From: a virus
Taxonomy: Duplodnaviria > Heunggongvirae > Uroviricota > Caudoviricetes
IMG/VR virus record: IMGVR_UViG_3300029286_001043
Location: 28,228 to 92,227 of that record
Strand: one strand, 5' to 3'
Length of the DNA: 64,000 nt
Shown here: one piece after another, positions 1,795 through 57,616 of the stretch
Layout of the letters: each line of letters starts with the position of its first letter
How positions within the stretch are numbered: position 1 is the stretch's first letter
Translations under genes and position numbers: made by a program
Notes under the pieces: model-generated
What the model saw: only the letters and a program-made list of their open reading frames with translations
What the model was told of the DNA's origin: nothing
Databases searched by the model: none

Positions 1795-1968
1795 TCTCGT
1801 CCTTCTATAGTGTAGAGAGGATCTATTTATCTAATGACTTCAAATAATCTAGTGCTTCACGACCACTTAAAATTCTATTCAACGGCAGCGGATTAGTGTC
1901 CGCCTTCTTCTCTTCTTTCTTTACTTCTACTTCAGGTTTCGGATTTGCTATTCTCTTTTTCAGTCTCA

Positions 1969-2011
1969 TAATTTAAAACTCCAGGAACGGGGGATCGAAG
2001 GCCCCCGTTCC
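1969..2011 (-). terminator. Rho-independent terminator after the MCP/HEG unit
   Basis: GC-rich hairpin GGAACGGGGG(1984-1993)/CCCCCGTTCC(2002-2011), followed on the minus-strand RNA by UGGAGUUUUAAAUU. Confidence 0.5.
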
Positions 2012-2024
2012 ATAGAGTAATTTG

Positions 2025-3041: not shown

Positions 3042-3182
3042 TCATAACTCCAATTTGGCTGCTGATTGACCGCACTAAAACATTTTTACTATTTCTAGTA
3101 GTTTTAGATACTCGGTTATTCCAGCAAGTTTCGACATTTTCTATATAAATTTCTTTATATAGCCGCATATATATCCCTTCCT

Positions 3183-17689: not shown

Positions 17690-20600
17690 CTATTTATTAA
17701 AACTTTCTGGAATTATCTTCGCTTTCCCATATTGCTCTTCCCACTTCGTATTCTTTCCTTCGTTCAGCGGTAGTGCCGCCTTCAAATCTGAATTGTCGAT
17801 CCTTGCATTTATACTTGCCTTGAATGGATTCTCTCCTGCACCGGCCGCCATTGGTGCTCCTCCTACTTCGCCCTCTTCTGGAATCTCTGGGGTAGTAAGA
17901 GGCCCTACTTGCTGTTCTACTTCTTTAACGACCTTGTCAAAATCAAAGTCAGACAAGTGCAAGATCTTCTCGTTGAAGTATTTCAGTACTTCTAATTTAT
18001 TGTACCCAGTCTCGCCTAATGTAGTATTCAAAATTTCAACCATCTTAGTAACTACATCGGCTCCACTCGACAGTCCTTCCATCAATTCAGCATTTTCGGC
18101 AGTAGACGTTTCTCCCATCTTTAATTCAAACATCTCTAGATCTGGATCTTTACCTTGATAGGCTAAATGAATCTGCACTAACCTAGTCAATCCTACAATT
18201 AGAGCTCTTTGAATTCTTCGGCATTGACGAGAGAACCTAATATCAAGACGTTCGAAGTTATTACTTCCTATTCCACTGGGTACATCCTTCTGATATCCAC
18301 CTAACAATTGTAACGGTACTCTTAAAGCACAAGAGAGTTGATCTCTCAACTCTTCAATATCCCTTATCCATTTTATATCTACCTCCCCACCTAATTTTTC
18401 TATTCGTACACTATTGACATCTCCCCATACAGGCAGGATTATATCTTCCACGGCTGAATTATGTAAAAATACGCCAGCAGCAACCGGAAAATTATGGTTA
18501 TGTTCTATTTGAATATCATAAGTATCTTCACGTTCAATTAATTGTTCAACTCTAATTACTTTGTGATTCTGAATTACGGCTAAATCAGATTGTACTTTCT
18601 GTTTTCTTTCTGTCCATATCTTTGTAATTGTTTCCCCGATAACTCGGTCATAATGTTCTCTATTTTTATATTTTTGAGTATGTGTTTTTATACATTCGAA
18701 AGTCTCTCCACAACCGCAAGCGCAAGTCCTCGTTTCACGCCGATTTTTATATTCAATTTTAAATTTAGGACCGGATGGACATGAATTGATGTGCGCACCT
18801 AATGATCCGGCAGTTCCTAACCATGTTATATAACATAGCGGACAGGTTAATTGTCTAAGTTTTTTTGCTGATTTTTTCTGTTTAGATTTTATTATTTTCG
18901 CTTTATCTTTACCGTAAATTTTATCGTAAGAACCTAATTTTTTACCTTTATTTTGTTGAATTTGACCGATATGACTAATTGATAACTGTTCCTTTATTTG
19001 TTTCGCTTTATTTTCGCCATATAATTCAATATATGTTTTATTTTTGCGTGTTTTACTAAATGAATGTTTTCGCTGTTTAACTTTTATCTGTTCAGCCTTT
19101 TCTTCCCCATATATCTCTTCATATGTTTTACCAGTACAATGCTCTTTCGACCATTGCCCGCCAAACTTACTATGATAGGCCCAATGATCAATATAATGCA
19201 TCAATTCAAAATTGGTAGGATCATTATTTAATTTATTAAAATCAATATGATGAATAGACATACCGCGTTTTGGCTTTTCGCTATTGCTTTTCTTAAAAAC
19301 TAATCTATGTTCATAATGATATTGATTATCGGCTGGATTATATACTAATCTATACCCAGGTAATCCAGGATTCGTTGCAATTTTAGTATACAATGGCATA
19401 AGACTTTCACTTTGTCCTAAATCCTTAGCCATTTTGTATTCCCCATTCCTCAGCATAAATCGATGATCCGGTGTACAATCTATATATTGTTCGTTGTCTA
19501 AATGGACTCGAATTAATTCGGCATTCAATCGAGTTTTACATACTCCTACTAGTTTATTAGGTTCTAATTCTAAAGTTTGTTCATTAATAGTCCATACTGA
19601 TTTTCCAATATATTCATTTGGTTTTTCTGCCATTTCTTCGATTGTTGGTTCAGTACCATCCAATAAACTTATTTTAGTATTTCCTCTAAGACATAAATTG
19701 TCCATTCTCTCTTTATATGGATTTGGACTAGTTGCTGAAATATCTAATGAATTGTGAACAAAAATACCATCAGTTAATCCAAAATTATGATTTCGTTCTG
19801 TGGTTATATCATAAGTATCTTCTCTAATAACTAATCTTTCTACTCTAACTACCTTATGATTAATAATTGCAGGTTCTAATTTTCTTCTTGCCCATGCCAG
19901 TTTTAGAGATTCAGATCTCCTTTTTAACGTCTCTGGTGACGGTTTAATTCCAAGGTGTCCTTCACTCATATGTTTTTTCGATTCGGCGGAATGAATTGTA
20001 CCTTTATTCTTTACCCCAATCTTTTGTTTATGTTCTTCAGTCATCGGCTTATTTTTTCTATTATGCCCAACTGCATATTGCCATAAAGACGTAATTATAA
20101 CTTCTTTGCTATAACCACATCCACATTTACAAAAACGAATTTCGTGCGGTAATCTTAAATACCGTTTTCCGGCTAAAAAATTGTTTCTGCGTGATTCTTT
20201 TTGTTTATTAATATTTTCAATTGGCCTTTTATATCCAGTTCGTGATTTAGAAATTTTAGCGCAAATATGACTATTCTCTTTAGTTAATCCCTTTGTTACA
20301 TGAGGCTTAACTAATCCTAGAGACTTCTTCACTAAATAGGTTTCAGCTTTCTTTGCTAATCTTTCATCCGTTTCCTTAGTTAATCCTTTACTCCACCCAA
20401 GCTTTAAAGATTTATTATATGTTTTGTATTTACCATCCTTAGAATTTTGAATATTATGTAAAGCTAAATGTCTCCCTCTAAGTTCAAATTTTAAATTAGA
20501 TGGATCATCATCGCATTTTCTAAAATTCTTATGATGAATAACATGTCCTTTCGGCGTTTTGCCGAATAAAAATTCGAATGCAGTTTTAAATACCAATTCA

Positions 20601-23125
20601 TATTTTCCGGATTTAGGATTAAATATATAATTTCGTTGATCCTTATTTCGTCTAGTATATAATGGCATAAGACTTTCACCTTCAATCAGATCTTTAGCTT
20701 CTTTATACTCCCCATCTCTCAGCATAAACCTATGATCCGGAGTACAATCAATATACAATTCGTTATCTAAATGGACTCTTACTAATTCAGCATTCAATCT
20801 AGTCTTCTGAACATTTATTATTTTATCCGGTTCAAAAGCTTTAGTTTCAGTATTAATACTATATACATATTTCCCAATATATTTATTAGGATCATCAGCC
20901 ATTTCCTTAATAGTAGGATTAGATCCACTTAGCAAACTTATTTTTGTATTTCCTCGAAGACATAAATTCTTCTTCAATACTGCGCCGTACTCGTCTAATA
21001 TTGCAGTAACAGCATCGGCATTTGAATTCTTGTCTACTCCAATCAGGAATACTCTCTGTCCCTGTCCTCGTACTACTCTGCTCATCAACAAAGAATCTTC
21101 CGCCATCTTCAATCGTTTGTAAGGAACTAATGCATTATTCAATACACTCGTTCCATATTTACTTGATACTCTTCGAGCATCTGGAGTTAGCATACTCATA
21201 GGGTTATATCCTTGTGTTGCCGAATCTCCAAATATAACTCTTCTCTTCTTCGTACCCAATAATCTGAAGTGGGCAAATGCATATGGAGGCAATAGAGTTT
21301 CAGCTGTATTCACTGACATTCCGGCTTGACCTGGCGTCTTAAAGAATCCGACCAATCTTCCGTCTACGTCTACTCTTGAATAATCTAATGGATGGGCCGA
21401 ATCTTCTACACTTACAATCCCTACTCCTGGAATTGCATTGATCTGGACGAACATATCACCATACAGACAATTATGAACAAATACCCCAGCCCCAACTGAA
21501 AAATTATGATTTTTAGTTGTAGTTATATCATATACATCTTCACGTTCAATTAATCGTTCAACTCTAACTACTTTATGATTCAAATATTCTTTGCGTTTAC
21601 TCAACATTACCAGACAATTAGCCGTTCTAGCTAATCTCTGCTTTTCAGTTATTTCTATTTTAATATGATTTTCTTTACGAAAAGAATTAATTAATGAATA
21701 AGTTGTATTTTGTTTAGTATTATGGCATTCCTCACAAAGTGTTATTCCATTACTTATATCCCAAAATGGTTTCCAAGTCATTGCTAACCTAACCAATATT
21801 TCCTTATCTTCAATAGGAGAAAATTGTGAATAATGTTTAAGAAATTCAGTTAATAATATAGAAAAAGGAATAATATGATGTGATCTAAGATGATGGCCTA
21901 TCTTTCCACATTCCTGACAGGTATAACTATCACGTTCAAAAACTTCCTTTCTCCAAAATTTATATTCTTCTAATTTATGGATAAGACCATATAAATTAAT
22001 ATGAATAAGACCTTTCCAACCGCTTTTCCGAATTGGTATATTAAATCTTCTTAAACGATCAGCTATAACCCCGCCGGGTACATTAATTATATTCGATATC
22101 TGTGGAATTGAAAACATTTGTTTTAAATATAAATCTTCTAAAAGTTCACGAGTAATAATATATTTATATTTTTTCTCTTTAACTATATTTCGGTTTTGAA
22201 CTATTTTTTGAGTTTCAGTCTTTGAACGAAGTGGAATACCGAATTTCCTTAAATAACAATCAACCGATGCACAGCCGATTAACTTGGTTATCCAAAGCAC
22301 AGAAAACTTTTTATTAACATAATTTTCGATCAAAAAATCCTTAGTTAAACTTAATTTTTGTTTTGAATACCAAAGGTTATCCTCAGGATTATAAACTCCA
22401 ATACCACCTTTATAGGCCTTAGTATACAACGGCATAAGACTTTCGCCTTCAACTAAATCCTTAGCTTCTTTGAACTGACCATCTCTCAGCATAAACCTAT
22501 GATTATTCGTACAATCGACATATTCACCATTGTCTAAATGAACGCGAACTAATTCAGCGTTCAGACGAGTTTTATAAACCCCAGCAATAGTATCTACTTC
22601 CAATCTCATAGTTTCAGGATTAACACTCCATAAATACTTCCCAACATATTCTTTCGAATTTTCAGCCATTTCTTTAATAGATGGCTGAGAACCGTCTAAA
22701 AGATTAATCTTCGTATTTCCCCGTAAACACATCGTGTACGCCCAATCGTATATTACTTCTTCTAAATTTATACTATCAAACAGCTTGTCAATCTGGTATT
22801 GATATTCCTTACTCTTTGCATCTGCCCATACAGTAACATTGTTTGTCGTACTCTTGCTCGTGCTGAAGTCTGAATACAGTTCTACAGCTGAACTCATCAA
22901 TGGGTGTTCTACGCTCGCCTTCTCCACTGCTACATATACCGATCGCCGGTCCGTAGCGACCTGGAGCATCTGTTGAATTGCCTTGTTCAGATCAGAGGTT
23001 ACAATCCCAATTCGCTTAAATTGCTCTTTCTCTACTTCTGATGTCTTGATTACTGGTAATTCCTTGGCAGGTATGACAGAAGTACTAGGACTTAACTTCT
23101 TACGCAGATAATTGATAATGTCCAA
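17690..23125 (-). CDS. gp20: portal protein (T4 gp20-like) interrupted by three inteins; 1811-aa precursor, ~575-aa spliced extein
   Basis: Extein segment ...DIKWIRDIEELRDQLSCALRVPLQLLGG... aligns with T4 gp20 ...[20 protein letters not shown].... Located just after TerL. Three insertions each start CLRGNTKI(N/S)LL, contain a TxxH block (DCT(N/P)(N/D)HRFM) and end (V/I)F(V/L)HN followed by C/S/S. TTG start with AAGGAG RBS. Confidence 0.8.
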   Translation of the reverse strand: MDIINYLRKKLSPSTSVIPAKELPVIKTSEVEKEQFKRIGIVTSDLNKAIQQMLQVATDRRSVYVAVEKASVEHPLMSSAVELYSDFSTSKSTTNNVTVWADAKSKEYQYQIDKLFDSINLEEVIYDWAYTMCLRGNTKINLLDGSQPSIKEMAENSKEYVGKYLWSVNPETMRLEVDTIAGVYKTRLNAELVRVHLDNGEYVDCTNNHRFMLRDGQFKEAKDLVEGESLMPLYTKAYKGGIGVYNPEDNLWYSKQKLSLTKDFLIENYVNKKFSVLWITKLIGCASVDCYLRKFGIPLRSKTETQKIVQNRNIVKEKKYKYIITRELLEDLYLKQMFSIPQISNIINVPGGVIADRLRRFNIPIRKSGWKGLIHINLYGLIHKLEEYKFWRKEVFERDSYTCQECGKIGHHLRSHHIIPFSILLTEFLKHYSQFSPIEDKEILVRLAMTWKPFWDISNGITLCEECHNTKQNTTYSLINSFRKENHIKIEITEKQRLARTANCLVMLSKRKEYLNHKVVRVERLIEREDVYDITTTKNHNFSVGAGVFVHNCLYGDMFVQINAIPGVGIVSVEDSAHPLDYSRVDVDGRLVGFFKTPGQAGMSVNTAETLLPPYAFAHFRLLGTKKRRVIFGDSATQGYNPMSMLTPDARRVSSKYGTSVLNNALVPYKRLKMAEDSLLMSRVVRGQGQRVFLIGVDKNSNADAVTAILDEYGAVLKKNLCLRGNTKISLLSGSNPTIKEMADDPNKYIGKYVYSINTETKAFEPDKIINVQKTRLNAELVRVHLDNELYIDCTPDHRFMLRDGEYKEAKDLIEGESLMPLYTRRNKDQRNYIFNPKSGKYELVFKTAFEFLFGKTPKGHVIHHKNFRKCDDDPSNLKFELRGRHLALHNIQNSKDGKYKTYNKSLKLGWSKGLTKETDERLAKKAETYLVKKSLGLVKPHVTKGLTKENSHICAKISKSRTGYKRPIENINKQKESRRNNFLAGKRYLRLPHEIRFCKCGCGYSKEVIITSLWQYAVGHNRKNKPMTEEHKQKIGVKNKGTIHSAESKKHMSEGHLGIKPSPETLKRRSESLKLAWARRKLEPAIINHKVVRVERLVIREDTYDITTERNHNFGLTDGIFVHNSLDISATSPNPYKERMDNLCLRGNTKISLLDGTEPTIEEMAEKPNEYIGKSVWTINEQTLELEPNKLVGVCKTRLNAELIRVHLDNEQYIDCTPDHRFMLRNGEYKMAKDLGQSESLMPLYTKIATNPGLPGYRLVYNPADNQYHYEHRLVFKKSNSEKPKRGMSIHHIDFNKLNNDPTNFELMHYIDHWAYHSKFGGQWSKEHCTGKTYEEIYGEEKAEQIKVKQRKHSFSKTRKNKTYIELYGENKAKQIKEQLSISHIGQIQQNKGKKLGSYDKIYGKDKAKIIKSKQKKSAKKLRQLTCPLCYITWLGTAGSLGAHINSCPSGPKFKIEYKNRRETRTCACGCGETFECIKTHTQKYKNREHYDRVIGETITKIWTERKQKVQSDLAVIQNHKVIRVEQLIEREDTYDIQIEHNHNFPVAAGVFLHNSAVEDIILPVWGDVNSVRIEKLGGEVDIKWIRDIEELRDQLSCALRVPLQLLGGYQKDVPSGIGSNNFERLDIRFSRQCRRIQRALIVGLTRLVQIHLAYQGKDPDLEMFELKMGETSTAENAELMEGLSSGADVVTKMVEILNTTLGETGYNKLEVLKYFNEKILHLSDFDFDKVVKEVEQQVGPLTTPEIPEEGEVGGAPMAAGAGENPFKASINARIDNSDLKAALPLNEGKNTKWEEQYGKAKIIPESFNK
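18458..19693 (-). other. intein 3 in portal (412 aa, HNH + NUMOD-like repeats + Zn fingers)
   Basis: CLRGNTKISLLDG...AAGVFLHN followed by SAVEDII. Contains MSIHHIDFNKLNNDPTNFELMHYIDHWAYH and YGEEKAEQIK / YGENKAKQIK / YGKDKAKIIK repeats. Only 19 extein residues separate it from intein 2. Confidence 0.75.
19751..20962 (-). other. intein 2 in portal (404 aa, HNH-like + NUMOD-like repeats)
   Basis: CLRGNTKISLLSG...GIFVHN followed by SLDISAT. Contains HVIHHKNFRKCDDDPSNLKFEL...HLALHN and WSKGLTKETDERLAKK repeats. Confidence 0.75.
21470..22729 (-). other. intein 1 in portal (420 aa, HNH endonuclease insert)
   Basis: Begins CLRGNTKINLLDG after extein ...YDWAYTM and ends ...GAGVFVHN before CLYGD. 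HNH motif YTCQECGKIGHHLRSHHIIPFS...NGITLCEECHN. Boundary checked at nucleotide level (aat at 21470-21472). Confidence 0.75.
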
Positions 23126-37006: not shown

Positions 37007-38122
37007 CTAATTCTTACTTTTTAAATCAACAGCATAAAAAAATGTTTGCACTCTATTTTCATTAACGCCCCAAACGAGTTGTATAGGATTAGAATATTTA
37101 GCCATACTCTCCGATAACCCATCACCGCCAACAGTAGATGGACCTCTAAACACGCGTATTCCATCGACATCATATAATCCAAAATGGTGCCAATGCCCAT
37201 AAACTATAGCTTTTGCACAATGCTCTTTAGCCCACGCACTAAATTTTACTCGGCCGGACGGAGTATCCGGCTGTTCAGGTGCTAAATGCCGAATAAGATA
37301 ACAGTGTCCTCGGATATCAAACGTCATATAATCTGTCTCAACATATTTAATTTTAAATTTACTATTTTTTAATTCAGCTTTTGACCAGTATTCTAATATC
37401 ATATATATCATTAAATCCCAATTAGCTGTAGGATCAGTATCTTTACCCGTCCGACCGTGATTCCCTTTGACTCCGTAAAAAGTAACTGGTAATTTCCGGG
37501 CTAATAACGCTTTTATCAATTTACCAACAACCTTAACTACTAACATAACTTGTTTAGGCGGCGCTAATTCCTGTTCATAAGCTTGAGTAGCATAAATATC
37601 TTCGCCATTAGCCTGATCCCCGGTTGATATTATCACAACATCAGTAATCGGTACACCTTTACTAATATTATTATCAAGTAACTTTAATATCTGCTTACAT
37701 AATTTATCTAATCGTTCTATAAAAATATTCTCATCATAAATAATCCTGCCCTCTTGATCCTTTACAATTTTTCCGGCATGGAGATCTGACAATTGTATTA
37801 CTAAAGTATCGCCAGACTTAGAAATTTTAAATTCCTTATCGGCATACTGTTCTATTTTACTCAATTCAATCTCTAATAGTTTTATAATAATTTTTGAGCG
37901 GTCAGATGATTTTACTGAAGGATTCGGAGAAAATATATTAGAACCAATAACTTTATTTTTCCGAGTAATGCCAAATCGCCCTAAAGTATGTTCAACTGCG
38001 CTAACAGTAGAACTTAAAGTTTCGGCAATCTTAAAATTATTAAACCCTAAATCAACTAATTCTCTCAATCTCTTTACACGTTCAGGAGGCCACTTACAGC
38101 GGGAATCTTTTTTCTTAATCAT
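37007..38122 (-). CDS. metallophosphoesterase with N-terminal sigma-r4/LuxR-like HTH
   Basis: HTH RVKRLRELVDLGFNNFKIAETL. Phosphoesterase motifs LSDLHAG, GDQANGED, GNHG, GHWHH. Confidence 0.6.
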   Translation of the reverse strand: MIKKKDSRCKWPPERVKRLRELVDLGFNNFKIAETLSSTVSAVEHTLGRFGITRKNKVIGSNIFSPNPSVKSSDRSKIIIKLLEIELSKIEQYADKEFKISKSGDTLVIQLSDLHAGKIVKDQEGRIIYDENIFIERLDKLCKQILKLLDNNISKGVPITDVVIISTGDQANGEDIYATQAYEQELAPPKQVMLVVKVVGKLIKALLARKLPVTFYGVKGNHGRTGKDTDPTANWDLMIYMILEYWSKAELKNSKFKIKYVETDYMTFDIRGHCYLIRHLAPEQPDTPSGRVKFSAWAKEHCAKAIVYGHWHHFGLYDVDGIRVFRGPSTVGGDGLSESMAKYSNPIQLVWGVNENRVQTFFYAVDLKSKN

Positions 38123-38397: not shown

Positions 38398-38895
38398 TTA
38401 TTTACTCCCAGTTTTTATCCTTCGGCAATACTCAGCAATAAGTAATCCATCCGCATCTTTAAACCCTTTAAATTCCACTTTAGGAAATAATCTTTTAGCC
38501 ACATCAAGAGAGGCAATCTTCAATTCCTCTTTATGCAATCCATGTGGGAGTAATTCCTTTTGCCACTCCTTGCTATCCGTAACTTCATATCCAATTTCGG
38601 TTTCTTCTAATGCCAGTATTGTTGCTTCATAAGCCCGTAATGCCGAGGCTGTCGCATTAAACATCGAGGGATTAACAAGTGGTCGTTCAATTAAAGCATT
38701 AATTTTGCAAGCTGAATAACTACACAATAATTCAAATAATTCTTTATAATCTATACGGTTTAAAAACTTCTTTTCTTTAGTATAATTCAAACACTTCTTT
38801 ATCGGAGTATGCAGAAATTTAACTTCTTCATCAGAAGTTATTATCCCAATAGAACCTGAAACTCCGTTATCTATCCCGATCCAAACTGTTATCAT
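38398..38895 (-). CDS. RuvC-like Holliday junction resolvase
   Basis: N-terminal WIGIDNGVSGSIGI (RuvC GIDPG-type catalytic Asp). C-terminal DADGLLIAEY. Confidence 0.55.
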   Translation of the reverse strand: MITVWIGIDNGVSGSIGIITSDEEVKFLHTPIKKCLNYTKEKKFLNRIDYKELFELLCSYSACKINALIERPLVNPSMFNATASALRAYEATILALEETEIGYEVTDSKEWQKELLPHGLHKEELKIASLDVAKRLFPKVEFKGFKDADGLLIAEYCRRIKTGSK

Positions 38896-39509
38896 TCGAA
38901 TAATCTCCGGTGTTCACGGCCAGAATATCTTAGTTCATTAGTTAAACAGTAATTCCAAACATCTCGACATTCAATTTTGTTAAAAGATCCATTTACATCT
39001 GACGGCATAACAATGATTCTAGAGTATTTGGCCGCTTTAAACATATCAATGTTAGTTATATCAAAGAACGTATTAATATGAAGCTGGGTGTCCCGCTCAC
39101 TACCCTGCCATTCAAATTTATAATACCCATTAGAAAATCTATAATTTCTCATCCACCGATAGTTATCATGATTTAAATGTTCTTTATTCGGCTTTATAAC
39201 CAGTGTTGTTTTATCGACCAATGGAATTAAAATCGTTCGATCTAAATCGAGATCAGTCATACGACCTGAGGTTTCAATAATAACATTCTTATTCCCGATT
39301 TTTGTAATCAACTCACAAAGATCTTTTAATTGCCTAAACGGCTTTCCGGTTATAGTAATTACTTCGCCAACACCCTGATGCAATATATCTGCTAATTCAA
39401 ATAAATCAGTAACTTTACCTGCTTCATCCAATTCTAAAACTACAGTAGGAATCCCGGACTTCGGAGACTCTCCTCTTAGAGTAGACTCAATCTTGGCGAT
39501 CTTTAACAT
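38892..39509 (-). CDS. hypothetical protein
   Basis: 205-aa ORF. Confidence 0.4.
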   Translation of the reverse strand: MLKIAKIESTLRGESPKSGIPTVVLELDEAGKVTDLFELADILHQGVGEVITITGKPFRQLKDLCELITKIGNKNVIIETSGRMTDLDLDRTILIPLVDKTTLVIKPNKEHLNHDNYRWMRNYRFSNGYYKFEWQGSERDTQLHINTFFDITNIDMFKAAKYSRIIVMPSDVNGSFNKIECRDVWNYCLTNELRYSGREHRRLFE

Positions 39510-39683: not shown

Positions 39684-42608
39684 TTAAGAATATAAACTAC
39701 TTACTCCGGATCTTTTTATAATGTTTAAAGTCGAATCAGAATACGAACTCAATTCGGGCGTATGGGATATTACAAGAACAACCTTGTCTTGTCCTTCACT
39801 ATGTAACATTGCCCCGATATTTTCTTCGCCTTGACGATCCAAATATGAAAACAATTCATCAAATATTAATAAACCTAAAACCCCAGTCTTTAATCCATGT
39901 CGATTCGCTAACCATTTGTTCAAAGCTAAACAGAGAGATACGTCGCATCGTCTCTTTTCTCCACCACTGAGCGCATCGTATTTTCGGGTATTCCCGTCTA
40001 TATTTATTTCTAGATTTAATTTATTACGATCTTCTCCTGATTTTAAAACCTTAGTAGGACTTACAACGATACTCATATCGCCATTTGACGCACTAGACAA
40101 ATAAGCATTAACTAATAAATTGAACTGATTGCAAAAGCGATCCAATAATAAACCACGAATACCCTTCGAAGAAAAGGCGTGTTTCCAGAAATTAAATATT
40201 TCAATATCACTATTTAAATTATTAACATCTTTTTCTATATTAGAAGATTCTATGACCTGTTCAGCTAAAACCGCAATAATAACTTTCTGATCTCGAACTA
40301 CTTTATCCGCACGATTATTAACATCGGCTATAGTATTTTTGCATTCTCGTATTAACGATAGATAATTATCAATTTGAGAATCGATTGAATTTTTTCTTAA
40401 CTGATTTTCTTGTATTAATTTATCCTGATTCATTTTATCCAGTATTAAGAAATTCTTTTCGTTTTTAATTTCCTTTATTACTTGAGTATAGTTTATTCTA
40501 TTTAGGTTAAAAATTGCAAGTTTATCCTCAAGTTGTTTCTTATTTCCATATAATATAGTTAAGTGATTATGAAGGTCTTTATTGCTATTTCCTAATAATT
40601 GTATCTCTTTATTCTTGTCCTCAACAAACAAAGAAATATTATGCTTTTCAATTGTTGACCCACATTTATCACACCGACTTCCTAAATGACTATTATTCAA
40701 TGAATTAATTTCGCGGTTTAATTCTTCAATTTGATTAGTATTAAATTTAAGTGTATGTTCTAATTCAGTTATCTCAGCCGAAAATTCCTCTTTTTCGGTT
40801 CTAATAACATCTAATTCTTTACTAACGTCTTCAATCATAATTTCATATTTATCTTCACGTTCTTTTAATCCTGATAATTTAACATCAAAATCAATAATTT
40901 TAATCTCTTCTACCGTAACACTGCTCGCCTTTAACTCAGTTATCTTACCTTTATATTCTTCTAACTTAGTATTGTGATCTTTAATCCAATCGTTCATAGT
41001 ATCTAACTCGTTATTGAGAAGTTCAATCTTATTCTTATTATTAGATATTTCATTGTCTACTGTTTGCTTCTGTAATTTTAACTCTTCTTGTAAATCTCCA
41101 TTGTTATTGATCTTATCCACTATTATATCATGTAAATCATCATACGTTTCAAATCCTAATAAATTTGTAATCATATTAGTCTTCTCGGCATCAGAAAAAC
41201 TAGTCAAGGCTTTCAAATTCTCTTGACTAAAATAACAAGAAGATAGGAAAGTATTCTTATCAAATCCTAATATACTATTTAAAATTGCCTGCCTGTCATT
41301 CTGTTTAAGTCCTTCAGTAAGTTCTTGTTCAAATCGGTTCGAAGATATTAATGAAGATTTAAAAATACTTAATCCCCGCTCCCGAGATCTACAAATAAGA
41401 TAATAGTTTTCCGCATCATTAATATCTAAAATAACCTGACAATCCTTTTCACCCCGTCGTATTACGTCGTCGCCAGTTAATCCCTTGGTTGTTTCACCGA
41501 ATAAGCACCAAAATAACGAATCTACAAAACTGGTCTTACCGGACCCGTTACTATCTTTATCTTCATTGTTTCCGGTAATTAAAGTAAACCCATCTTTAAA
41601 GGTATATTTTATTTCACCGATTGACATAAAATCTTTAATACTACACCGAACAATTTTACCTGTAAATATTTTACTTCCTAAATTAGATTTATTTATTAAA
41701 ATTGGTTTTACGATATTAAAATATTCTTCAGATTTATTATTTAATACTATCCATTCCTTTAATATACTTTCAAAATCCTCAGATTTCAATCTCTCATCAA
41801 AAGTCTTAGGAACTATCATACTAACAACATTAGGCAGATTACTCTTCTTATCTGCCCCAACAATCCGGTAATAATTGTAATCGTCGACTACTTCTTCAGC
41901 AGAAACAACGGTTCTGAACTCTGGGTATTTAAGTGGCAGGAAGGTTATTGAATTATCATCGGTGTCTATTAAGTACACACCGCGCGTCCCAGTATCACCG
42001 AAATTTAAATGCATAGGTGATCCAACAATAAAACAATTGTCTGCTAACTTTTCTCTTTGATGAATATGGCCAAAAAATACCATCTTGTTTTGAAGAGATA
42101 ATAATTTCCAATTTACTCCATCCTCAAATGTATAATTGTTTACCTTCGCTCCGATAGGAGTCTGATGAACAACTACTATATCATAATCCTTTATCCTATC
42201 ATAATCTATTTTCTCATTAAACCCGATTAACCTAATTTTTATATCTAAATTTTCGGTAACCGGAACTCGGTCAAAAACATTAGTAGAGAAATGAAACCAC
42301 TCAGGATCAATGCGATTTATCATATCATGATTACCTGGAACAAAGAAGCACGGTACTTTAGACTGATCTAAAGAATTATAAAATTGATGAGCTATATTGA
42401 GTGCTTCGACAGGAATAGAACCTACAGAATGAAAAAGGTCTCCGCCATTAATGAAGACCTTTACCTTATTCTTTACAATTATATCGGTTATTTGTGACAG
42501 AACTTGCTGCTGATCAAATAATCTCTTAGGAAGTAGAGTATCTGAATGCAACCCAAAATTGTTCCATCGATGCAAATGTATATCTGATGCTATACAAATT
42601 TTACTCAT
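39684..42608 (-). CDS. fused Mre11-Rad50 recombination nuclease/ATPase (T4 gp47+gp46 equivalents in one polypeptide)
   Basis: N-terminal phosphoesterase motifs ASDIHLH, GGDLFH, PGNHD, VVHQ, GHIH. Then Rad50 Walker A GNNEDKDSNGSGKTSF, long coiled coil with CDKCGS zinc hook, signature LSGGEKRR, Walker B LLIFDE, H-loop VISHT. 974 aa. Confidence 0.75.
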   Translation of the reverse strand: MSKICIASDIHLHRWNNFGLHSDTLLPKRLFDQQQVLSQITDIIVKNKVKVFINGGDLFHSVGSIPVEALNIAHQFYNSLDQSKVPCFFVPGNHDMINRIDPEWFHFSTNVFDRVPVTENLDIKIRLIGFNEKIDYDRIKDYDIVVVHQTPIGAKVNNYTFEDGVNWKLLSLQNKMVFFGHIHQREKLADNCFIVGSPMHLNFGDTGTRGVYLIDTDDNSITFLPLKYPEFRTVVSAEEVVDDYNYYRIVGADKKSNLPNVVSMIVPKTFDERLKSEDFESILKEWIVLNNKSEEYFNIVKPILINKSNLGSKIFTGKIVRCSIKDFMSIGEIKYTFKDGFTLITGNNEDKDSNGSGKTSFVDSLFWCLFGETTKGLTGDDVIRRGEKDCQVILDINDAENYYLICRSRERGLSIFKSSLISSNRFEQELTEGLKQNDRQAILNSILGFDKNTFLSSCYFSQENLKALTSFSDAEKTNMITNLLGFETYDDLHDIIVDKINNNGDLQEELKLQKQTVDNEISNNKNKIELLNNELDTMNDWIKDHNTKLEEYKGKITELKASSVTVEEIKIIDFDVKLSGLKEREDKYEIMIEDVSKELDVIRTEKEEFSAEITELEHTLKFNTNQIEELNREINSLNNSHLGSRCDKCGSTIEKHNISLFVEDKNKEIQLLGNSNKDLHNHLTILYGNKKQLEDKLAIFNLNRINYTQVIKEIKNEKNFLILDKMNQDKLIQENQLRKNSIDSQIDNYLSLIRECKNTIADVNNRADKVVRDQKVIIAVLAEQVIESSNIEKDVNNLNSDIEIFNFWKHAFSSKGIRGLLLDRFCNQFNLLVNAYLSSASNGDMSIVVSPTKVLKSGEDRNKLNLEINIDGNTRKYDALSGGEKRRCDVSLCLALNKWLANRHGLKTGVLGLLIFDELFSYLDRQGEENIGAMLHSEGQDKVVLVISHTPELSSYSDSTLNIIKRSGVSSLYS

Positions 42609-43356
42609 CTAATTCATTTTCTGTCCATATTAAATATTTCATCGAATTTTCTCGACAGTATTGTTCTCCAGCATTAAACTTTAAAATATTTATAATAGTA
42701 TTTAATTTTTTAGATGGTTTAACTTCAATCAATACTTTACGTTTATCATTATACTCAACTAAAATATCCGGGACATAAATCCGCGCTTCTCCTTTATAAA
42801 TATACGGAATACTAAAATAGCATCGGCCGTACCGCGTAACAGTATAATCATGTTCTAATTTAATGTAAGCTTTTAATTCATACGAAGATTGAAATCTAAT
42901 TTCGCAATTATTTTTATATGATTTAAAATAGCCAGCAATATAACCAATCATTTGATGTTTTTCAACTTTAGATATATATTTAGGATCAGACCAGCATTTT
43001 AAACTACTTATTTTTCTATTTATCTTTAATTTTTTAGCTTTCTTTTTTCCGTGAATATTTTCATATGATCGGTCTTTAAGCTTACTAATTTGATTTAATA
43101 ATAAAATTTTTCGTAAATTATGATATTCTTTAGCGCGTTCAGAACCGTAAATATCTTCATATGTTCTGCCTCGAGTAGGATGATTAGTTGAAAGATTGTG
43201 CCCTAAAAAATATCTCCAAGAATCCTTAGTTTTAACAATTTTAGATTTACCACAGCCGCATAAACAAAAACGGGTCTCTCTCGGCAGCATATGAGTACCC
43301 TTCTTTGCTTTGCTTATATTTCGGCAATGTTTAGCCGTAAATATTATTTTGCCCAT
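42601..43356 (-). CDS. homing endonuclease-like protein (Zn finger + PD-(D/E)xK)
   Basis: CLCGCGK N-terminus. YGSERAKEYHNLRK repeat. VPDILVEYNDKRKVLIEVKPSKKLN core. Confidence 0.6.
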   Translation of the reverse strand: MGKIIFTAKHCRNISKAKKGTHMLPRETRFCLCGCGKSKIVKTKDSWRYFLGHNLSTNHPTRGRTYEDIYGSERAKEYHNLRKILLLNQISKLKDRSYENIHGKKKAKKLKINRKISSLKCWSDPKYISKVEKHQMIGYIAGYFKSYKNNCEIRFQSSYELKAYIKLEHDYTVTRYGRCYFSIPYIYKGEARIYVPDILVEYNDKRKVLIEVKPSKKLNTIINILKFNAGEQYCRENSMKYLIWTENELDE

Positions 43357-43883: not shown

Positions 43884-44186
43884 CTATCTATTCGTCCAGA
43901 TGAAAAGAATATTATCCTTAATCGCAAATTTTATATACGTCTTAATCCCTAAATGCTTAGCAGCAGTCCGGATACCGATCTTTATAGTATTGATCTTGCC
44001 TTTATTCGCGCCAGTAATATCCATTTGAACGCACTTAGAAGAATCAATTATTTTTAGAGTATCGATTATCGGATTGTATTTACTCTTGCTCCTCTGTAAC
44101 ATCTCCAATTCGGCAGTTCTGTCAACTACACATATTCCATCAGGAAGAATCGGTAAAACATTATCTAATTTCTGGCCTTTTCTCAT
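43884..44186 (-). CDS. hypothetical protein
   Basis: 100-aa ORF. Confidence 0.35.
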   Translation of the reverse strand: MRKGQKLDNVLPILPDGICVVDRTAELEMLQRSKSKYNPIIDTLKIIDSSKCVQMDITGANKGKINTIKIGIRTAAKHLGIKTYIKFAIKDNILFIWTNR

Positions 44187-44890
44187 TTCTTCCCCCCGGT
44201 CGTATAAAATTCAATTGTCATGCTCTTACAATTTTCCTTTAATTCACAAGCAATACAGTCTGGGTTAATTGGGTTAAATTTCTGCCCGAAACATTCCTTT
44301 TTAACCGCTGGTTTATCTTCCTTTTTATCAACTTTATTTTGGCCAGTCGGTTCAGAACTTGCACCACTCATCATATCATTAATCCTGGTGGCAGTAGGAA
44401 TTTCAAACTTTGTTTCAAGATCGATAAAATTATCAATCATCTTCTTTTTTAAATCTTCGCTAATCACTTTGCTTTCCTTCATCGGAAGTACTTCATAAGT
44501 AGTATCGAGCTTAGTACCCTTTCTAGTAATTACTATATCATACTCAGTAATCTCGCCGTATTTCTGAACTAAATTCTGAAACTTGCGCTTCAAAGTTATT
44601 CCAAACTTCAAGATCTTAATATTCTCATCCTTTCGGTCAAGAATGTTAATGTAATAATGCAATTTAGGCATATTACCTGCCGCGCATAATGGACAGCCGT
44701 CTCCCATACATAATATATATTTCATCTTCGCTTCAGGAACATAATGAACATTCCTAAATATATATTGGCCTAATAACCGAATTAAATTATCACCCTCATC
44801 GAGAGTTTTAAATTCGTCTTTACCGAAAATCTCTTTCTCCTGTGCTGAATCTTCCCAGGTCTTTGCTTTAAACATATTCTGCTCTGCCAT
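44183..44890 (-). CDS. putative single-stranded DNA-binding protein (T4 gp32-like) with Zn motif and acidic C-terminal region
   Basis: GDNLIRLLGQ...HY...CMGDGCPLC parallels gp32 GQAVIRFLP...H...C...C..C. Weak. Confidence 0.4.
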   Translation of the reverse strand: MAEQNMFKAKTWEDSAQEKEIFGKDEFKTLDEGDNLIRLLGQYIFRNVHYVPEAKMKYILCMGDGCPLCAAGNMPKLHYYINILDRKDENIKILKFGITLKRKFQNLVQKYGEITEYDIVITRKGTKLDTTYEVLPMKESKVISEDLKKKMIDNFIDLETKFEIPTATRINDMMSGASSEPTGQNKVDKKEDKPAVKKECFGQKFNPINPDCIACELKENCKSMTIEFYTTGGKK

Positions 44891-45800: not shown

Positions 45801-47108
45801 CTATTTTTTGTCTTCGTTATCAAGAAGCCAGATCGTAAACTTATAGTTTTCAGGCACGGTATCAAAATTACCAGCTCTTAAATAATCAACCTCAGCTTTT
45901 GAAGAGATCTTCGGGCAATAAACCATAGCATAAGTAGTTCGCCTATTTATTAATGCCTTTAACATTTCATAGTGTCTTTCGTAAATATGGAAAGAATCCA
46001 CAAAATGATAATATTCGCCGTACTCTAATTCCGGATATGTATACTTAAGACTAATAAACATCATTTCATGTATAAATGAAAAAGTTGGTAAATCACTACC
46101 TAATCCGAGTATACTGTCTTGGGATCTCATTTTCACAGTCATATTTAATTTATTATTTCGTATTCTAAAACTAATGTTATACGTGCATGGTATTTCCTTC
46201 ATCTTCTCATTCCTAGTATGATAAGGTTGAAGAATAATAATCGCAGCTCTTCTAGAATCTTTATCTTTAATAAGAGCTTTTAAAACATAATCAAATTGGT
46301 TTTCTTGCCCGAAAATATATTGTCCATAATTAGAATTTATCGACCCGTCTTCATTAATAAATTCTTTCCACATTTTAGCATATTCACAAATAGAAATATC
46401 AAATTTATCGCCTTTAAGATACCATAAAAATTCCTTTTTAATATAATTAATATTTAATTTTCGCGGTTCAAAATTAGTAAATCTTACATATGGTGGAAAT
46501 ATATATGAAAAATTCTCAATTTCTTTGACTTTCAATCCTCTAGGAGCAGATTCTTTTCCATATTTATTCAGTACTCTATATATTTTTAATAATAAATTTC
46601 GATGATGTTTTTCGCCATGTAAAAATCCCCATTCTTCATTTTTTCTTTTAACTGTTTCTTTTTGTTTATTAATTGTAAATTCTGATTTTCTTTTACCGAA
46701 CATAGGATTACCCTCCCCAATATTCATTTCTCTAACCTTTATTCGTCCTTCTTCTGTTTTCATCCATGATTTTTCGCCAATTTTCTGTTTACTTTCATCA
46801 GTATGAGTTTTACCGAACATACCATTTTTCGGACCTAATAATGTCGCGCCGAATGCTTCATTCTTAATATTATAAGATTTTATATCGTCAGCCGCATTAC
46901 ATTCCTTTAATAACCGTTCTTCTTCCGTCCTATAGTTTTCCCCAAAATATAAGATCTCTCTTCGGTATTTATCAATTCCATGTTTCTTAATTGCATGATT
47001 AAAAATCCGGCTAGAACTAATATATCCGTCTTCAGGATTGCCGCCATGAGACCCTATATAATATTTGCATGTTTCTATATTAACCCATTTATAAACAAAC
47101 CCAATCAT
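45801..47108 (-). CDS. in-frame fusion: GIY-YIG/NUMOD3 homing-endonuclease module (aa 1-~160) + complete thymidylate-synthase-family domain (TS or dCMP hydroxymethylase-like)
   Basis: GFVYKW...KYYIGS (GIY-YIG). GPKNGMFGKTHTDESKQKIGEKS and GEGNPMFGKRKSEF (NUMOD3). Then LLKIYRVLNKYG..., EFLWYLKGDKF, YGQYIFGQ, DSRRAAIIILQPYH, IPCTYN, RSQDSILGLGSDLPTFSFIHEMM match TS blocks (ELLWFLKGDTN, YGFQWR, SRR, PCH, RSxD..LGxPFN). No in-frame start codon between the modules. Confidence 0.7.
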   Translation of the reverse strand: MIGFVYKWVNIETCKYYIGSHGGNPEDGYISSSRIFNHAIKKHGIDKYRREILYFGENYRTEEERLLKECNAADDIKSYNIKNEAFGATLLGPKNGMFGKTHTDESKQKIGEKSWMKTEEGRIKVREMNIGEGNPMFGKRKSEFTINKQKETVKRKNEEWGFLHGEKHHRNLLLKIYRVLNKYGKESAPRGLKVKEIENFSYIFPPYVRFTNFEPRKLNINYIKKEFLWYLKGDKFDISICEYAKMWKEFINEDGSINSNYGQYIFGQENQFDYVLKALIKDKDSRRAAIIILQPYHTRNEKMKEIPCTYNISFRIRNNKLNMTVKMRSQDSILGLGSDLPTFSFIHEMMFISLKYTYPELEYGEYYHFVDSFHIYERHYEMLKALINRRTTYAMVYCPKISSKAEVDYLRAGNFDTVPENYKFTIWLLDNEDKK

Positions 47109-55697: not shown

Positions 55698-56739
55698 TTC
55701 TATTTACCTCAAATATGTTTAACTCTCCTAATTTAATATATTCTCTTTTGTATAAATGTTGCATAACATCTTCTCTATCGTCTAAATAAGTAAAAGGTAT
55801 CTTTAAATCAGTTATCATATCAATACAGTATTCCTTGAGTACTTTAGACGATAACCCGATATTCTTGTTATTCCATATATAATAGATAGGCCGGTCAATA
55901 ACACTAACTAACTTTAAGTGTATATAGTCTTCAATTTTTTCTCGGCCAGTTATAATCAGCAATGGTTCATTCAAATTGCCGAGAGAATTAATATAGTTAA
56001 CAACTTCGATTCTCAACTCAGCATTCTTCATTTCGGGATAACCTAACTTCAGAATTGTCCCATCCAAATCTGAAATTATAATACCGTTCTTCTTTTCAAA
56101 TATACTAAGAGTATTCAAATGTTTCGTAAGATACTTTTTTATTCGGCTATCATAATAGTAACAATCAAATCTGCATTCGGCTATCTCGGTACATAAATCA
56201 GAAAAATCGGAAGTACTAAACTTCATACCGTCATCTCGATAGAAAATTTTAACCTCACAACCTGCTAATCTTAATCTGGCTACCAAACATTTAAACTCCT
56301 CATTCACATCTTTTTCCCATTGCTCCTTCATCCCAGAATCCCGCCGAATGAAGATCCAGAACTCCGACATAGGTTTAAACATCTCTAGATAGGCTTCAAG
56401 GTAGGTGTCCATGGTCACATGCCTGATTACCTTAGAATATACGTAACTGGATAGAAAACCACGATCTACGAATAGTATTTTGGAAAGATCTGAAGTCTGA
56501 TTTATGAAGTCAAATAGAATTCTCCAGTCGTGTTTAAGGCTCTCGTCTAAATTAACTTTCTCTCCGGCAAAATCAGAACCCATTTGATAGTTAGAACGAA
56601 AGTAAACGAATGAATTAGGATCGGCATTAATAACTTGCTTTATTTTGGTTGTCTTACCTGCACCATCTGTTCCCGAACAAAAAAGTATCTTACGAAACAT
56701 TTGAATACTCCTTAAATTTTTGTAAATATATTTTATCAA
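55690..56739 (-). CDS. bifunctional P-loop kinase / HAD phosphatase, T4 polynucleotide kinase-phosphatase (PseT)-like
   Basis: N-terminal Walker A FCSGTDGAGKTT. C-terminal IISDLDGTI (DxDGT) and IITGREK (HAD motif II/III region). Confidence 0.5.
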   Translation of the reverse strand: MIKYIYKNLRSIQMFRKILFCSGTDGAGKTTKIKQVINADPNSFVYFRSNYQMGSDFAGEKVNLDESLKHDWRILFDFINQTSDLSKILFVDRGFLSSYVYSKVIRHVTMDTYLEAYLEMFKPMSEFWIFIRRDSGMKEQWEKDVNEEFKCLVARLRLAGCEVKIFYRDDGMKFSTSDFSDLCTEIAECRFDCYYYDSRIKKYLTKHLNTLSIFEKKNGIIISDLDGTILKLGYPEMKNAELRIEVVNYINSLGNLNEPLLIITGREKIEDYIHLKLVSVIDRPIYYIWNNKNIGLSSKVLKEYCIDMITDLKIPFTYLDDREDVMQHLYKREYIKLGELNIFEVNRNA

Positions 56740-57616
56740 AGATTATTAATCCTTTATCTATATATTCTTTAATGACGGCAGAACTATAATTAGGAATATC
56801 TTTCTCAATTATTATAATAAATCGTTTTCCAAATCGTTCTTTCGCCGCATTAAATTTAGCTTTATTATAGGTTGTATTTATTAGTTTTTCAGGTTTTACT
56901 TCTGCTATTTGATCGGTTTTAGGTAAATAAAAATCAGGAGAATAAGTTCTTTTATTTCCAGAAATAGGATCAATATAATCAATTCTATATTTTATAATTT
57001 CAGCTTTATTAAATTGTATTTGTGACTCAGTTAAAAACATCATATATTTCAGCTCTAAAATACTCCTAAAATAAATCCCATTAAATCTTCCCTTCCAACC
57101 GTTCCCCGATTTTTTAGGCGAAGGCTTACCGAACATTGGATTATTTTCGCCGGAAGACGAAATACTTAATTTATGTTTAATCTTATTCGCCTTATCAATA
57201 CCGAATCTCTGTTCCCAAGTTTTACCCTTAGCATCTTCATGACATTTTTCAAACTTACAATATTTACCACCATAATTTGGATTATTTTTCCCACTACTAT
57301 TTTTACTAAATTTTTCTTTAACTAATTTAGCCTTTTCAACACCTAATATTTGTTCAAGAGTTTTCCCGCTTTGCTTTCTACTCCAAATCTGAATACAGGA
57401 AGTTCTTAATCCTAACGTATACGCTATTTCTTGTTTACACCCTCGACATAAATCTTTATTATATTGTCTATAGCCGCTAATGACATTGTAATATTTTCGT
57501 CTATATATCTTCCCACAAGTATCGCACTTCACATCACATGACTGAGTAACGATTATAGTTCCATTACGTATTTTTCCTGTTTCACACTTATTCTTCTTTA
57601 ATTTAGATAATATCAT
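56690..57616 (-). CDS. homing endonuclease-like protein (Zn finger, NUMOD3, PD-(D/E)xK)
   Basis: CDVKCDTCGK. GKNNPNYGGKY and GENNPMFGKPSPKK repeats. YSPDFYLPKTDQIAEVKPEKL core. Confidence 0.6.
   Translation of the reverse strand: MILSKLKKNKCETGKIRNGTIIVTQSCDVKCDTCGKIYRRKYYNVISGYRQYNKDLCRGCKQEIAYTLGLRTSCIQIWSRKQSGKTLEQILGVEKAKLVKEKFSKNSSGKNNPNYGGKYCKFEKCHEDAKGKTWEQRFGIDKANKIKHKLSISSSGENNPMFGKPSPKKSGNGWKGRFNGIYFRSILELKYMMFLTESQIQFNKAEIIKYRIDYIDPISGNKRTYSPDFYLPKTDQIAEVKPEKLINTTYNKAKFNAAKERFGKRFIIIIEKDIPNYSSAVIKEYIDKGLIIFDKIYLQKFKEYSNVS

Follow-up and report, generated by a model that had tools for sequence, protein, structure and literature searches.

A predicted single-chain Mre11-Rad50 enzyme encoded by an uncultured, distantly T4-like phage

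The DNA analysed here is a 64-kb stretch of a viral genome (64,000 nucleotides, termed the window below). On its minus strand lies an open reading frame with an ATG start, and inspection of the reading frames in the window found no rival long one at the locus. It encodes the Mre11 (SbcD) nuclease followed by the Rad50 (SbcC) ATPase, and is laid out as follows.

39684..42608, minus strand: single-chain Mre11-Rad50 (SbcDC) open reading frame, 974 aa plus stop codon, uninterrupted.
41964..42608, minus strand: Mre11/SbcD phosphodiesterase domain, aa 1-215, with motifs I-V (D9/H11, D57/H60, N93/H94, H148, H181/H183); from Pfam Metallophos, the N-terminal profile and conservation of the catalytic residues.
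41814..41963, minus strand: capping-domain-like beta region, aa 216-265; from AF2 strands and profile alignment to M. jannaschii Mre11.
41697..41774, minus strand: probable Rad50-binding helix-loop-helix (HLH) of Mre11, helices aa 279-289 and 295-304, with conserved E285/W286; from AF2 and conservation.
41658..41696, minus strand: connector of 13 residues, aa 305-317, forming the fusion joint between the HLH and Rad50 strand 1; from AF2, the SbcC starts of split relatives and linker length.
41154..41657, minus strand: Rad50 N-terminal ATPase lobe, aa 318-485 (Walker A K358, Q-loop Q462); from HMMs, conservation and structure matches.
40695..41153, minus strand: ascending coiled-coil arm, aa 486-638, with a break at 560-574; from AF2.
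40647..40694, minus strand: zinc-hook loop, aa 639-654, with invariant C646 and C649 (CDKC); from conservation, AF2 and motif scan.
40176..40646, minus strand: descending coiled-coil arm, aa 655-811; from AF2.
39687..40175, minus strand: Rad50 C-terminal ATPase lobe, aa 812-974 (signature S881-G883, Walker B D917-E918, D-loop D924, H-loop H949); from HMMs, conservation and structure matches.

The N-terminal module has the Mre11/SbcD fold and motifs I-V of that family (DxH, GDxxH/D, GNHD/E, H and GHxH), which occur as DIHLH at residue 9, GDLFH at 56, GNHD at 92, VVHQ at 146 and GHIH at 180. Pfam assigns Metallophos to aa 3-184 (E 1.7e-13), and the SbcD-like family phrog_100 of PHROGs covers aa 1-293 (E 5.6e-38); a match to Mre11/SbcD models had been set as a test by an earlier note on this DNA. 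A profile of the N-terminal part matches exclusively Mre11/SbcD structures in the PDB. The region that follows the catalytic domain resembles the Mre11 capping domain: AF2 places strands at 220-225, 231-234, 246-252 and 261-265 (pLDDT 74-94 over aa 220-265), and profile positions 22-263 align to residues 35-296 of M. jannaschii Mre11. The two helices at aa 279-304 are probably the Rad50-binding HLH of Mre11, as suggested by predicted secondary structure (AF2 pLDDT ~88), a block conserved among homologues (FEERIKS..F..IL.EWL) that spans them, and a weak alignment to the C-terminal region of T. maritima Mre11, whose domain i-E-value of 1.7 is not significant alone.

The remainder of the chain is a split ABC head of the Rad50/SbcC type, interrupted by a long antiparallel coiled coil with an apical CxxC. 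The N-lobe carries Walker A (GSGKTS, residue 355) and the Q-loop (FSQE, 460), and the C-lobe carries the signature (LSGGEKRR, 880), Walker B (LIFDE, 914), the D-loop and the H-loop (ISHT, 947). Pfam assigns AAA_23 to aa 322-535 (E 2.6e-14) and SMC_N to aa 319-969 (E 6.3e-13), both of which pass their cutoffs, and the SbcC-like phrog_77 covers aa 315-972 (E 3.8e-76, 258 bits). SbcC_Walker_B, whose cutoff is 27 bits, scores 23.2. In the AF2 model, helices 486-638 and 655-811 form antiparallel arms of ~150 residues each that flank the loop at aa 639-654, where the hook motif CDKC begins at residue 646. The zinc hook was assigned from this conserved CxxC at the coiled-coil apex because the Pfam Rad50_zn_hook model found no match on the protein.

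Structural comparison gives the same picture. The AF2 model has a mean pLDDT of 83.7 and the order of secondary structure expected for Mre11 followed by Rad50, and its best Foldseek matches are Rad50 chains of MR(N) complexes, with target-normalised TM-scores up to 0.79 for Rad50 heads. Matches to Rad50 in the PDB reach E 1.6e-42. The reading frame, Pfam and PHROGs, conservation, AF2, Foldseek and PDB profile therefore all agree with the earlier note's proposal of Mre11 and Rad50 in one 974-aa polypeptide, and each motif that it had listed (five of Mre11, then Walker A, zinc hook, LSGGEKRR, Walker B and H-loop) was located at a defined position. The NCBIfam Rad50, SbcC and SbcD models give local matches under their full-length cutoffs (best for NF002244, 90.9 bits where the cutoff is 847; TIGR00618 sbcc, 68.9 against 478.5). 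The equivalog level is thus not reached, which places the protein in a divergent viral lineage of the superfamily, outside the cellular equivalogs.

The fused form is widespread. More than 100 homologues with 28-61% identity are collinear with the protein from end to end, and metagenomes hold more than 110 related clusters at 90% identity. Among the best 150 representatives of clusters at 50% identity, ~139 cross the junction. In an alignment of 50 fused homologues, the Mre11 residues D9, H11, D57, H60, N93, H94, H148, H181 and H183 and the Rad50 residues K358, Q462, C646, C649, S881, G883, D917, E918, D924 and H949 are invariant or at least 90% conserved; K358, S881, G883, D917, E918, D924, H949 and both hook cysteines are invariant. 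One relative in NCBI is labelled “AAA family ATPase [Nanoarchaeota archaeon]” and is probably a mis-binned phage contig. Database labels such as this one, “SbcD-like subunit” or “hypothetical protein” conceal the fusion.

In a neighbour-joining tree, which is without support values and was built from sequences recruited by a junction-spanning query with a bias toward fused proteins, 196 of the 212 collected relatives are fused, and the ~185-leaf block that contains the query is uniformly so, except for fragments truncated by contig ends. With no support values and this biased recruitment, the tree is suggestive only as to how often fusion or fission occurred.

The fusion is genuine and no artefact of assembly. 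In principle, adjacent mre11 and rad50 genes could be merged by an error in sequencing or assembly that deleted a stop codon or shifted the frame, since in one split relative the two genes abut with a one-base overlap and a single error would be enough. The earlier note had pointed to aa 330-350 as the place for such a hidden stop or frameshift. This reading fails because contigs from four or more independent samples carry an identical 974-aa product and the homologues, with identity down to 28%, are collinear with it. Moreover, they align through the junction without gap or change of frame, the protein sequence at the joint is conserved, and the query block of the tree is fused throughout. 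The artefact is effectively refuted.

The relatives in which the two genes remain separate suggest how the fusion arose. In one of them (L011), a 363-aa Mre11-like gene is followed by a 647-aa SbcC gene with a TAATG stop/start overlap; in another (L013), genes of 340 aa and 644 aa lie ~870 nt apart. Both resemble the fusion in placing the nuclease first and differ from it in being two separate genes, and both have a RecA-like gene close by. The SbcC of the split relatives begins at a residue aligned to aa 317-319 of the fusion, which for L011 and L013 is aa 319. In the closest split relatives the two genes are neighbours coupled in translation, so loss of a stop codon would explain the fusion: an adjacent nuclease-then-ATPase pair, in an arrangement that persists in the split relatives, may have lost the stop codon between its genes.

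The earlier note had described this gene order as inverted relative to T4. That holds for the comparison with T4 alone, and nuclease-first is the normal order outside T4: the nuclease also comes first in Bacillus phage Nachito and in the nearest split relatives. Nuclease-first is likewise the order of bacterial sbcDC and archaeal mre11-rad50 operons.

Natural Mre11-Rad50 fusions have been known since 2011, and uncultured aquatic phages commonly carry them; the present gene is a new, clean example. The earlier description of such a fusion as rare is therefore overstated, for the class has been published (PMC3175470), occurs in deposited phage genomes and is abundant in metagenomes. Yoshida, Claverie and Ogata reported fusions in Mimivirus R555, Bacillus phage 0305phi8-36, C. 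kluyveri and Deferribacter plasmids and several eukaryotes, together with homologues in the GOS/BIOME viromes that are abundant in aquatic viral fractions and for which a phage origin was suspected (PMC3175470). In the T. maritima complex, the Mre11 C-terminus lies ~28 A from the Rad50 N-terminus, a distance for which a linker of 9-12 residues was predicted, and nuclease-first is the only order that places these two termini side by side (PMC3175470). The HLH is reported to be kept in other natural fusions (PMC3175470).

The protein described here shares the layout of the 2011 fusions, with Mre11 at the N-terminus, a region of capping-plus-HLH length, a linker of ~10 residues and Rad50 at the C-terminus, in one reading frame; its 13-residue connector is in keeping with the 9-12 residues predicted. 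By its published description, Mimivirus R555 is longer (1351 aa compared to 974 aa) and one of its motif V histidines is replaced by Asp (PMC3175470), while the canonical histidines are present here as GHIH. Among viral structural matches, fusion-sized proteins come first, and the Mimiviridae “DNA repair exonucleases” (1200-1400 aa) rank 5-12. In contrast to the 2011 fusions, the present protein comes with a long, distantly T4-like phage context.

Two cultured phages with deposited genomes encode the same architecture at only ~22-23% identity. Rhizobium phage RHph_TM30 gp240 (Kleczkowskaviridae, 959 aa) aligns collinearly to aa 3-961, with its hook CYAC opposite CDKC; an Acinetobacter phage vB_AbaM_3098 reading frame (938 aa) is nearly equal in length. 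Their records read “SbcD-like subunit” or “hypothetical protein” without flagging the fusion, and both fall in a distant part of the neighbour-joining ordering, among split forms. Compared to canonical two-subunit complexes (T4 gp47/gp46, E. coli SbcD/SbcC and archaeal Mre11/Rad50), the fusion has the catalytic motifs, zinc hook and antiparallel coiled coil in common, and differs in being one polypeptide with a divergent sequence and a short coiled coil of ~150 residues per arm.

The fusion gene lies, here and in relatives, in a replication/recombination module. Its neighbours in the window include the following genes.

42601..43356, minus strand: TnsA-like (homing-endonuclease-like) gene, upstream, whose end overlaps the start of the fusion gene by 8 nt.
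38398..38895, minus strand: Holliday-junction-resolvase-like gene, downstream (phrog_1770, E 7.6e-8).
37007..38122, minus strand: second, stand-alone metallophosphoesterase “exonuclease”, 371 aa (phrog_284, E 4e-43; Pfam Metallophos 21.9 bits, just over the cutoff).
44183..44890, minus strand: single-strand DNA-binding protein (SSB; phrog_14578, E 1.7e-14).

By tblastn, the 64-kb window holds no RecA/UvsX homologue and no extra copies of Mre11 or Rad50. In relatives, unlike here, a RecA/UvsX gene adjoins the Mre11-Rad50 gene. A gene similar to the 371-aa metallophosphoesterase sits near the fusion in one relative (L010).

The source is an uncultured, distantly T4-like phage, and the label “T4-type” is partly right. 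In its favor, the genome encodes a T4 gp20-like portal, a gp43-like PolB at ~26% identity and a weak match, under the Pfam cutoff, to the T4 gp21-type prohead protease. On the other hand, a near-identity DNA search with positions 30-50 kb of the window found no match among deposited phages, which indicates a phage without a close cultured relative.

Taken on its sequence, the gene very probably encodes a genuine single-chain Mre11-Rad50 (SbcD-SbcC) enzyme whose activity is predicted. It is highly improbable that it is instead an SMC-like ATPase-nuclease of defence or counter-defence (Lamassu-, Wadjet- or PbeC-like). The ATPase part does match LmuB (E 1.6e-21, 75 bits), mad3 and PbeC in PADLOC, and the Foldseek list includes Lamassu and JetC chains at lower ranks; however, the PADLOC matches score far under the 258 bits of the SbcC-like phrog_77 and are confined to the generic SMC/Rad50 ATPase. 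For the N-terminal domain, only Mre11/SbcD is matched and no defence model, the best structural matches are Rad50 chains from MR(N) complexes, and the CxxC hook is invariant. Moreover, the gene lies in a recombination module that is conserved across relatives, with no Lamassu or Wadjet partner genes alongside.

A different question is whether the fusion extends beyond the gene. Cleavage of the connector, or additional production of Rad50 from an internal start, would restore the usual two-subunit enzyme, and the connector at aa 305-317 is indeed exposed and non-helical (pLDDT ~70-81) in a genome that has the weak, sub-cutoff match to a prohead protease. Such an outcome is nevertheless very unlikely, as no cleavage motif is evidently conserved and there is no conserved Met or start context at the Rad50 boundary, where most homologues have Leu, Ile, Val or Phe in place of Met 329. 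That the frame has stayed fused over the long term also argues that the single chain is what has been selected, while being compatible with processing.

As a single-chain enzyme, the protein would be expected to work much as its two-subunit counterparts. The HLH helices would pack against the base of the Rad50 coiled coil, where the HLH binds in the canonical complex. They would then be in static contact even without the covalent link, which would do no more than secure them. Two chains would most likely dimerise via their Mre11 domains, ATP-engaged Rad50 heads and zinc hooks into the equivalent of M2R2. The stoichiometry fixed at 1:1 had been presented as special, which is overstated: because the canonical Mre11-Rad50 complex is already M2R2, fusion leaves the stoichiometry unchanged. 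ATP binding and hydrolysis would then allow the enzyme to clamp DNA ends or hairpins and to cut or resect them. T4 gp46/gp47 function in end processing and recombination-dependent replication, and a similar role is presumed here, in which the products would feed recombination-dependent replication and break repair alongside the neighbouring SSB, resolvase-like and exonuclease genes.

The fusion is no new type of system, and it overturns nothing known about MR complexes. It is a well-supported natural example of a single-chain MR: its phage context is long, its fused clade is large and conserved, and an origin from a coupled pair is plausible. A more tentative proposal, on balance doubtful, is that the fused clade (contigs of 90-140 kb from distant T4-like phages with gp20-like portal and gp43-like PolB) is the phage source of the “R555-like” Mre11/Rad50 reads that were predominant in aquatic viral-fraction metagenomes in 2011, and that its protein is a minimal, self-contained MR machine. 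Narrow literature searches for such fusions yielded engineered or tagged constructs only. Because the literature searched contains no biochemical or structural study of any natural Mre11-Rad50 fusion, the compact 974-aa single chain might be a handy subject for studies of the MR mechanism. If the proposal is true, an HLH tied to Rad50 might show whether the tether between Mre11 and Rad50 must stay engaged during the transition from the resting to the cutting state, and whether this tether acts in cis or in trans.

The Mre11-Rad50 (SbcD-SbcC) protein, here called the MR fusion, is encoded by a single unbroken ORF with an ATG start; only short spurious ORFs are called opposite it on the other strand. 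The earlier note's reading of a covalent fusion is correct, as one ORF holds both halves and each is matched by Pfam and PHROGs, and every motif it listed is found in the protein. Pfam places Metallophos at aa 3-184 (E 1.7e-13), AAA_23 at aa 322-535 and SMC_N at aa 319-969, and PHROGs add SbcD-like (aa 1-293, E 5.6e-38) and SbcC-like (aa 315-972, E 3.8e-76) matches. Both halves are confirmed by these profile searches, far above chance. NCBIfam gives local Rad50, SbcC and SbcD matches, every one under the full-length equivalog cutoff, which makes the MR fusion a divergent member of the two superfamilies. Its features, with domain limits from a confident AlphaFold2 model (mean pLDDT 83.7; input, an alignment of 50 homologues), are as follows.

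39684..42608, minus strand: MR fusion gene, 974 aa
aa 1-~215: phosphodiesterase domain (model)
aa 9, 56, 92, 146 and 180: Mre11 motifs I-V (DIHLH, GDLFH, GNHD, VVHQ, GHIH)
aa 220-265: capping-like beta region, then a lower-confidence stretch (model)
aa 279-289 and 295-304: two short helices, pLDDT ~88 (model)
aa 305-317: non-regular connector of 13 residues (model)
aa 318: Rad50 strand 1, then the N-lobe (model)
aa 355 and 460: Walker A (GSGKTS) and Q-loop (FSQE)
aa 486-638: coiled coil, with a break at 560-574 (model)
aa 639-654: apical loop with C646 and C649 (model)
aa 646: Rad50 hook (CDKC)
aa 655-811: return helix, then the C-lobe (model)
aa 880, 914 and 947: signature (LSGGEKRR), Walker B (LIFDE) and H-loop (ISHT)

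In Foldseek searches of the PDB, Rad50 chains of MR(N) complexes rank first (top match 7zr1, E 1.7e-18), with target-normalised TM-scores of up to 0.79 against archaeal and Thermotoga Rad50 heads. A profile built from residues 1-317 finds only Mre11/SbcD structures, including T. maritima Mre11 (3qg5_C, E 2.8e-12) and E. coli SbcD, and M. jannaschii Mre11 aligns over profile positions 22-263. The helices at aa 279-304 lie where the Rad50-binding helix-loop-helix (HLH) of Mre11 is expected, with a weak alignment to the T. maritima C-terminal region. We infer that they form this HLH, in accord with the analysis of other fusions (PMC3175470).

The gene lies in ~33% G+C phage DNA, in which all examined genes are on the minus strand. 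It is surrounded by a replication and recombination module comprising a DnaB-like helicase, an exonuclease, PolB, dCMP deaminase, dUTPase, thymidylate synthase, SSB, a Holliday-junction-resolvase-like gene and a second metallophosphoesterase. Structural genes include a major head protein, a collagen-like tail fibre and a T4 gp20-like portal, and a gp21-type prohead protease is matched weakly, under the Pfam cutoff. The PolB is only ~26% identical to T4-like gp43, and a near-identity DNA search with 30-50 kb of the window matches no deposited phage; the lineage is uncultured and distantly T4-like. A replication module also surrounds the gene in more distant fused relatives, where it adjoins a RecA-like gene at one locus (L009) and is near RecA-like, PolB and stand-alone metallophosphoesterase genes at another (L010). 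Neither a RecA homologue nor a second MR copy was found within the 64-kb window.

The portal ORF (17690..23125, minus strand; 1811 aa, Portal_T4 at aa 1557-1736) contains intein splicing domains in three stretches (Intein_splicing, E 1.8e-65), along with HNH/homing-endonuclease domains, and looks from its sequence to be invaded by multiple inteins. In the thymidylate synthase (45801..47108, minus strand; 435 aa), the ThyA domain covers only aa 215-394, and a NUMOD3 motif in the N-terminal ~210 residues suggests a fused or inserted homing-endonuclease-like module. Two free-standing minus-strand genes with TnsA-like endonuclease domains are probably homing endonucleases; one (42601..43356) shares 8 nt with the start of the MR fusion gene, and the other (56690..57616) also carries a NUMOD3 motif. 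The MR fusion is followed, 1.5 kb downstream, by the stand-alone metallophosphoesterase "exonuclease" (37007..38122, minus strand; 371 aa, phrog_284, E 4e-43). A similar 339-aa Metallophos gene (5302..6321 of L010) lies near the fused gene of that relative, which is at 33% identity, and this pairing may be conserved. A 205-aa ORF (38892..39509, minus strand), located between the MR fusion and resolvase-like genes, is matched only weakly by PHROGs (QueE-like radical-SAM, E 5.6e-4) and not at all by Pfam. A 1195-aa ORF (5792..9379, minus strand) has a weak N-terminal match to Peptidase_S77 (T4-type prohead core protease; aa 39-146, under the Pfam cutoff), followed by a long coiled-coil-like region, and no PHROG match.

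An assembly artefact, such as the stop or frameshift hidden near the joint that the earlier note allowed for, is effectively excluded. At least four independent samples (ERZ27250602, SRR8441843, SRR8536342, SRR8536341) gave contigs encoding the identical 974-aa product, and a search of 5.8 billion proteins yields more than 110 clusters (935-1060 aa, 28-61% identity) that are collinear with it end to end, many on contigs of 90-140 kb. In the 50-homologue alignment, conservation is at least 90%, up to full invariance, at every catalytic residue of the two modules and at the two hook cysteines. The junction (aa 265-318) is likewise conserved and aligns without gaps or breaks in frame. Purifying selection acts on both catalytic modules, the hook and the coiled coil, all of which are intact. 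The chain might instead be cleaved post-translationally, or Rad50 made by internal initiation, but the same alignment contains no conserved internal start or cleavage motif. A defence-type SMC nuclease was also considered and rejected: PADLOC matches are generic and weak (LmuB 75 bits vs SbcC-like 258 bits), the nuclease half has no matches other than Mre11/SbcD, and the gene lies in a replication module.

Natural Mre11/Rad50 fusions have already been described as a class (Yoshida, Claverie and Ogata, Virol J 2011, PMC3175470). In Mimivirus R555, Mre11 is N-terminal and Rad50 C-terminal, and 12 more fusions include those of Bacillus phage 0305phi8-36, Clostridium kluyveri plasmids, a Deferribacter megaplasmid and several eukaryotes; homologues (249 in GOS, 288 reads in BIOME) were enriched in viral fractions, and a phage origin was suspected. 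Most fusions keep a region of capping-plus-HLH length. In the T. maritima complex the Mre11 C-terminus is ~28 A from the Rad50 N-terminus, requiring a linker of 9-12 residues (PMC3175470), which the 13-residue connector fits. Among deposited phages, Rhizobium phage RHph_TM30 gp240 (959 aa, labelled "SbcD-like subunit") is collinear with aa 3-961 (E 1e-34), and a 938-aa "hypothetical protein" of Acinetobacter phage vB_AbaM_3098 has both domains. The best matches of the model in a viral predicted-structure library are fusion-sized proteins from Listeria phage LMTA-57, a Rhizobium phage group, Tenacibaculum phages and many Mimiviridae. A 980-aa fused homologue (MBU3913885.1; 37% identity), deposited from a MAG as "AAA family ATPase [Nanoarchaeota archaeon]", probably represents a phage contig mis-binned into an archaeal genome. 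The searched literature does not describe biochemical or structural studies of any natural fusion.

A joint-spanning fragment (aa 150-440), scored against 1.84 billion representatives at 50% identity, has 3,439 matches at E <=1e-3, 369 at E <=1e-10 and 72 at E <=1e-30. About 139 of the 150 best are long proteins matched across the joint. The other 11 are stand-alone: SbcC-only proteins (568-807 aa) start at the residue aligned with Rad50 strand 1, and Mre11-only proteins (319-340 aa) stop before it. Loci of split relatives carry neighbouring gene pairs, nuclease first; in one (L011), a 363-aa Mre11-like gene and a 647-aa SbcC gene share a TAATG overlap, and in alignment SbcC residue 3 falls opposite residue 319 of the MR fusion. 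A coupled nuclease-then-ATPase pair of this kind would acquire the fused architecture by losing its intervening stop codon. In Yersinia phage YerA41, gp117 (1911..4394 of its locus, 827 aa) comprises Mre11, the Rad50 N-lobe and the coiled coil, and the annotation assigns the C-lobe region to another gene (4391..4948, 185 aa) with a 4-nt overlap; the arrangement is a genuine alternative split or else results from a frameshift in the record. A neighbour-joining tree of 212 relatives (Rad50 part), which lacks support values and whose sequence recruitment favours fused proteins, has a block of ~185 leaves that includes the MR fusion and is uniformly fused save for contig-truncated fragments. True split forms lie in a distant part of the tree, interspersed with distant fused lineages, a pattern that fits the recurrent fusion proposed in 2011 (PMC3175470). 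The fusion had been called rare and its order meaningfully inverted relative to T4. Neither description is supported: such fusions are common among uncultured phages, and outside T4 the nuclease usually comes first.

By analogy with the canonical MR complex (M2R2), two chains would dimerise via Mre11, ATP-engaged Rad50 heads and zinc hooks to form its equivalent; ATP binding would clamp DNA, and hydrolysis would reposition the nuclease to cut blocked ends or hairpins. The canonical HLH remains on the coiled-coil base, and a flexible capping-to-HLH linker, whose counterpart here would be aa 266-278, frees the nuclease dimer to move. If the same holds here, tying the HLH to Rad50 should not restrict the working cycle. 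Judging from canonical MR/SbcCD, joining the HLH C-terminus to the Rad50 N-terminus would also leave the 1:1 ratio unchanged. Having one gene probably pays by ensuring that the two functions are expressed, assembled and transferred together, as the 2011 authors also suggested (PMC3175470). The MR fusion is a well-documented further case of a class known since 2011, and it is chiefly valuable as a compact candidate with which to study a natural single-chain MR enzyme.
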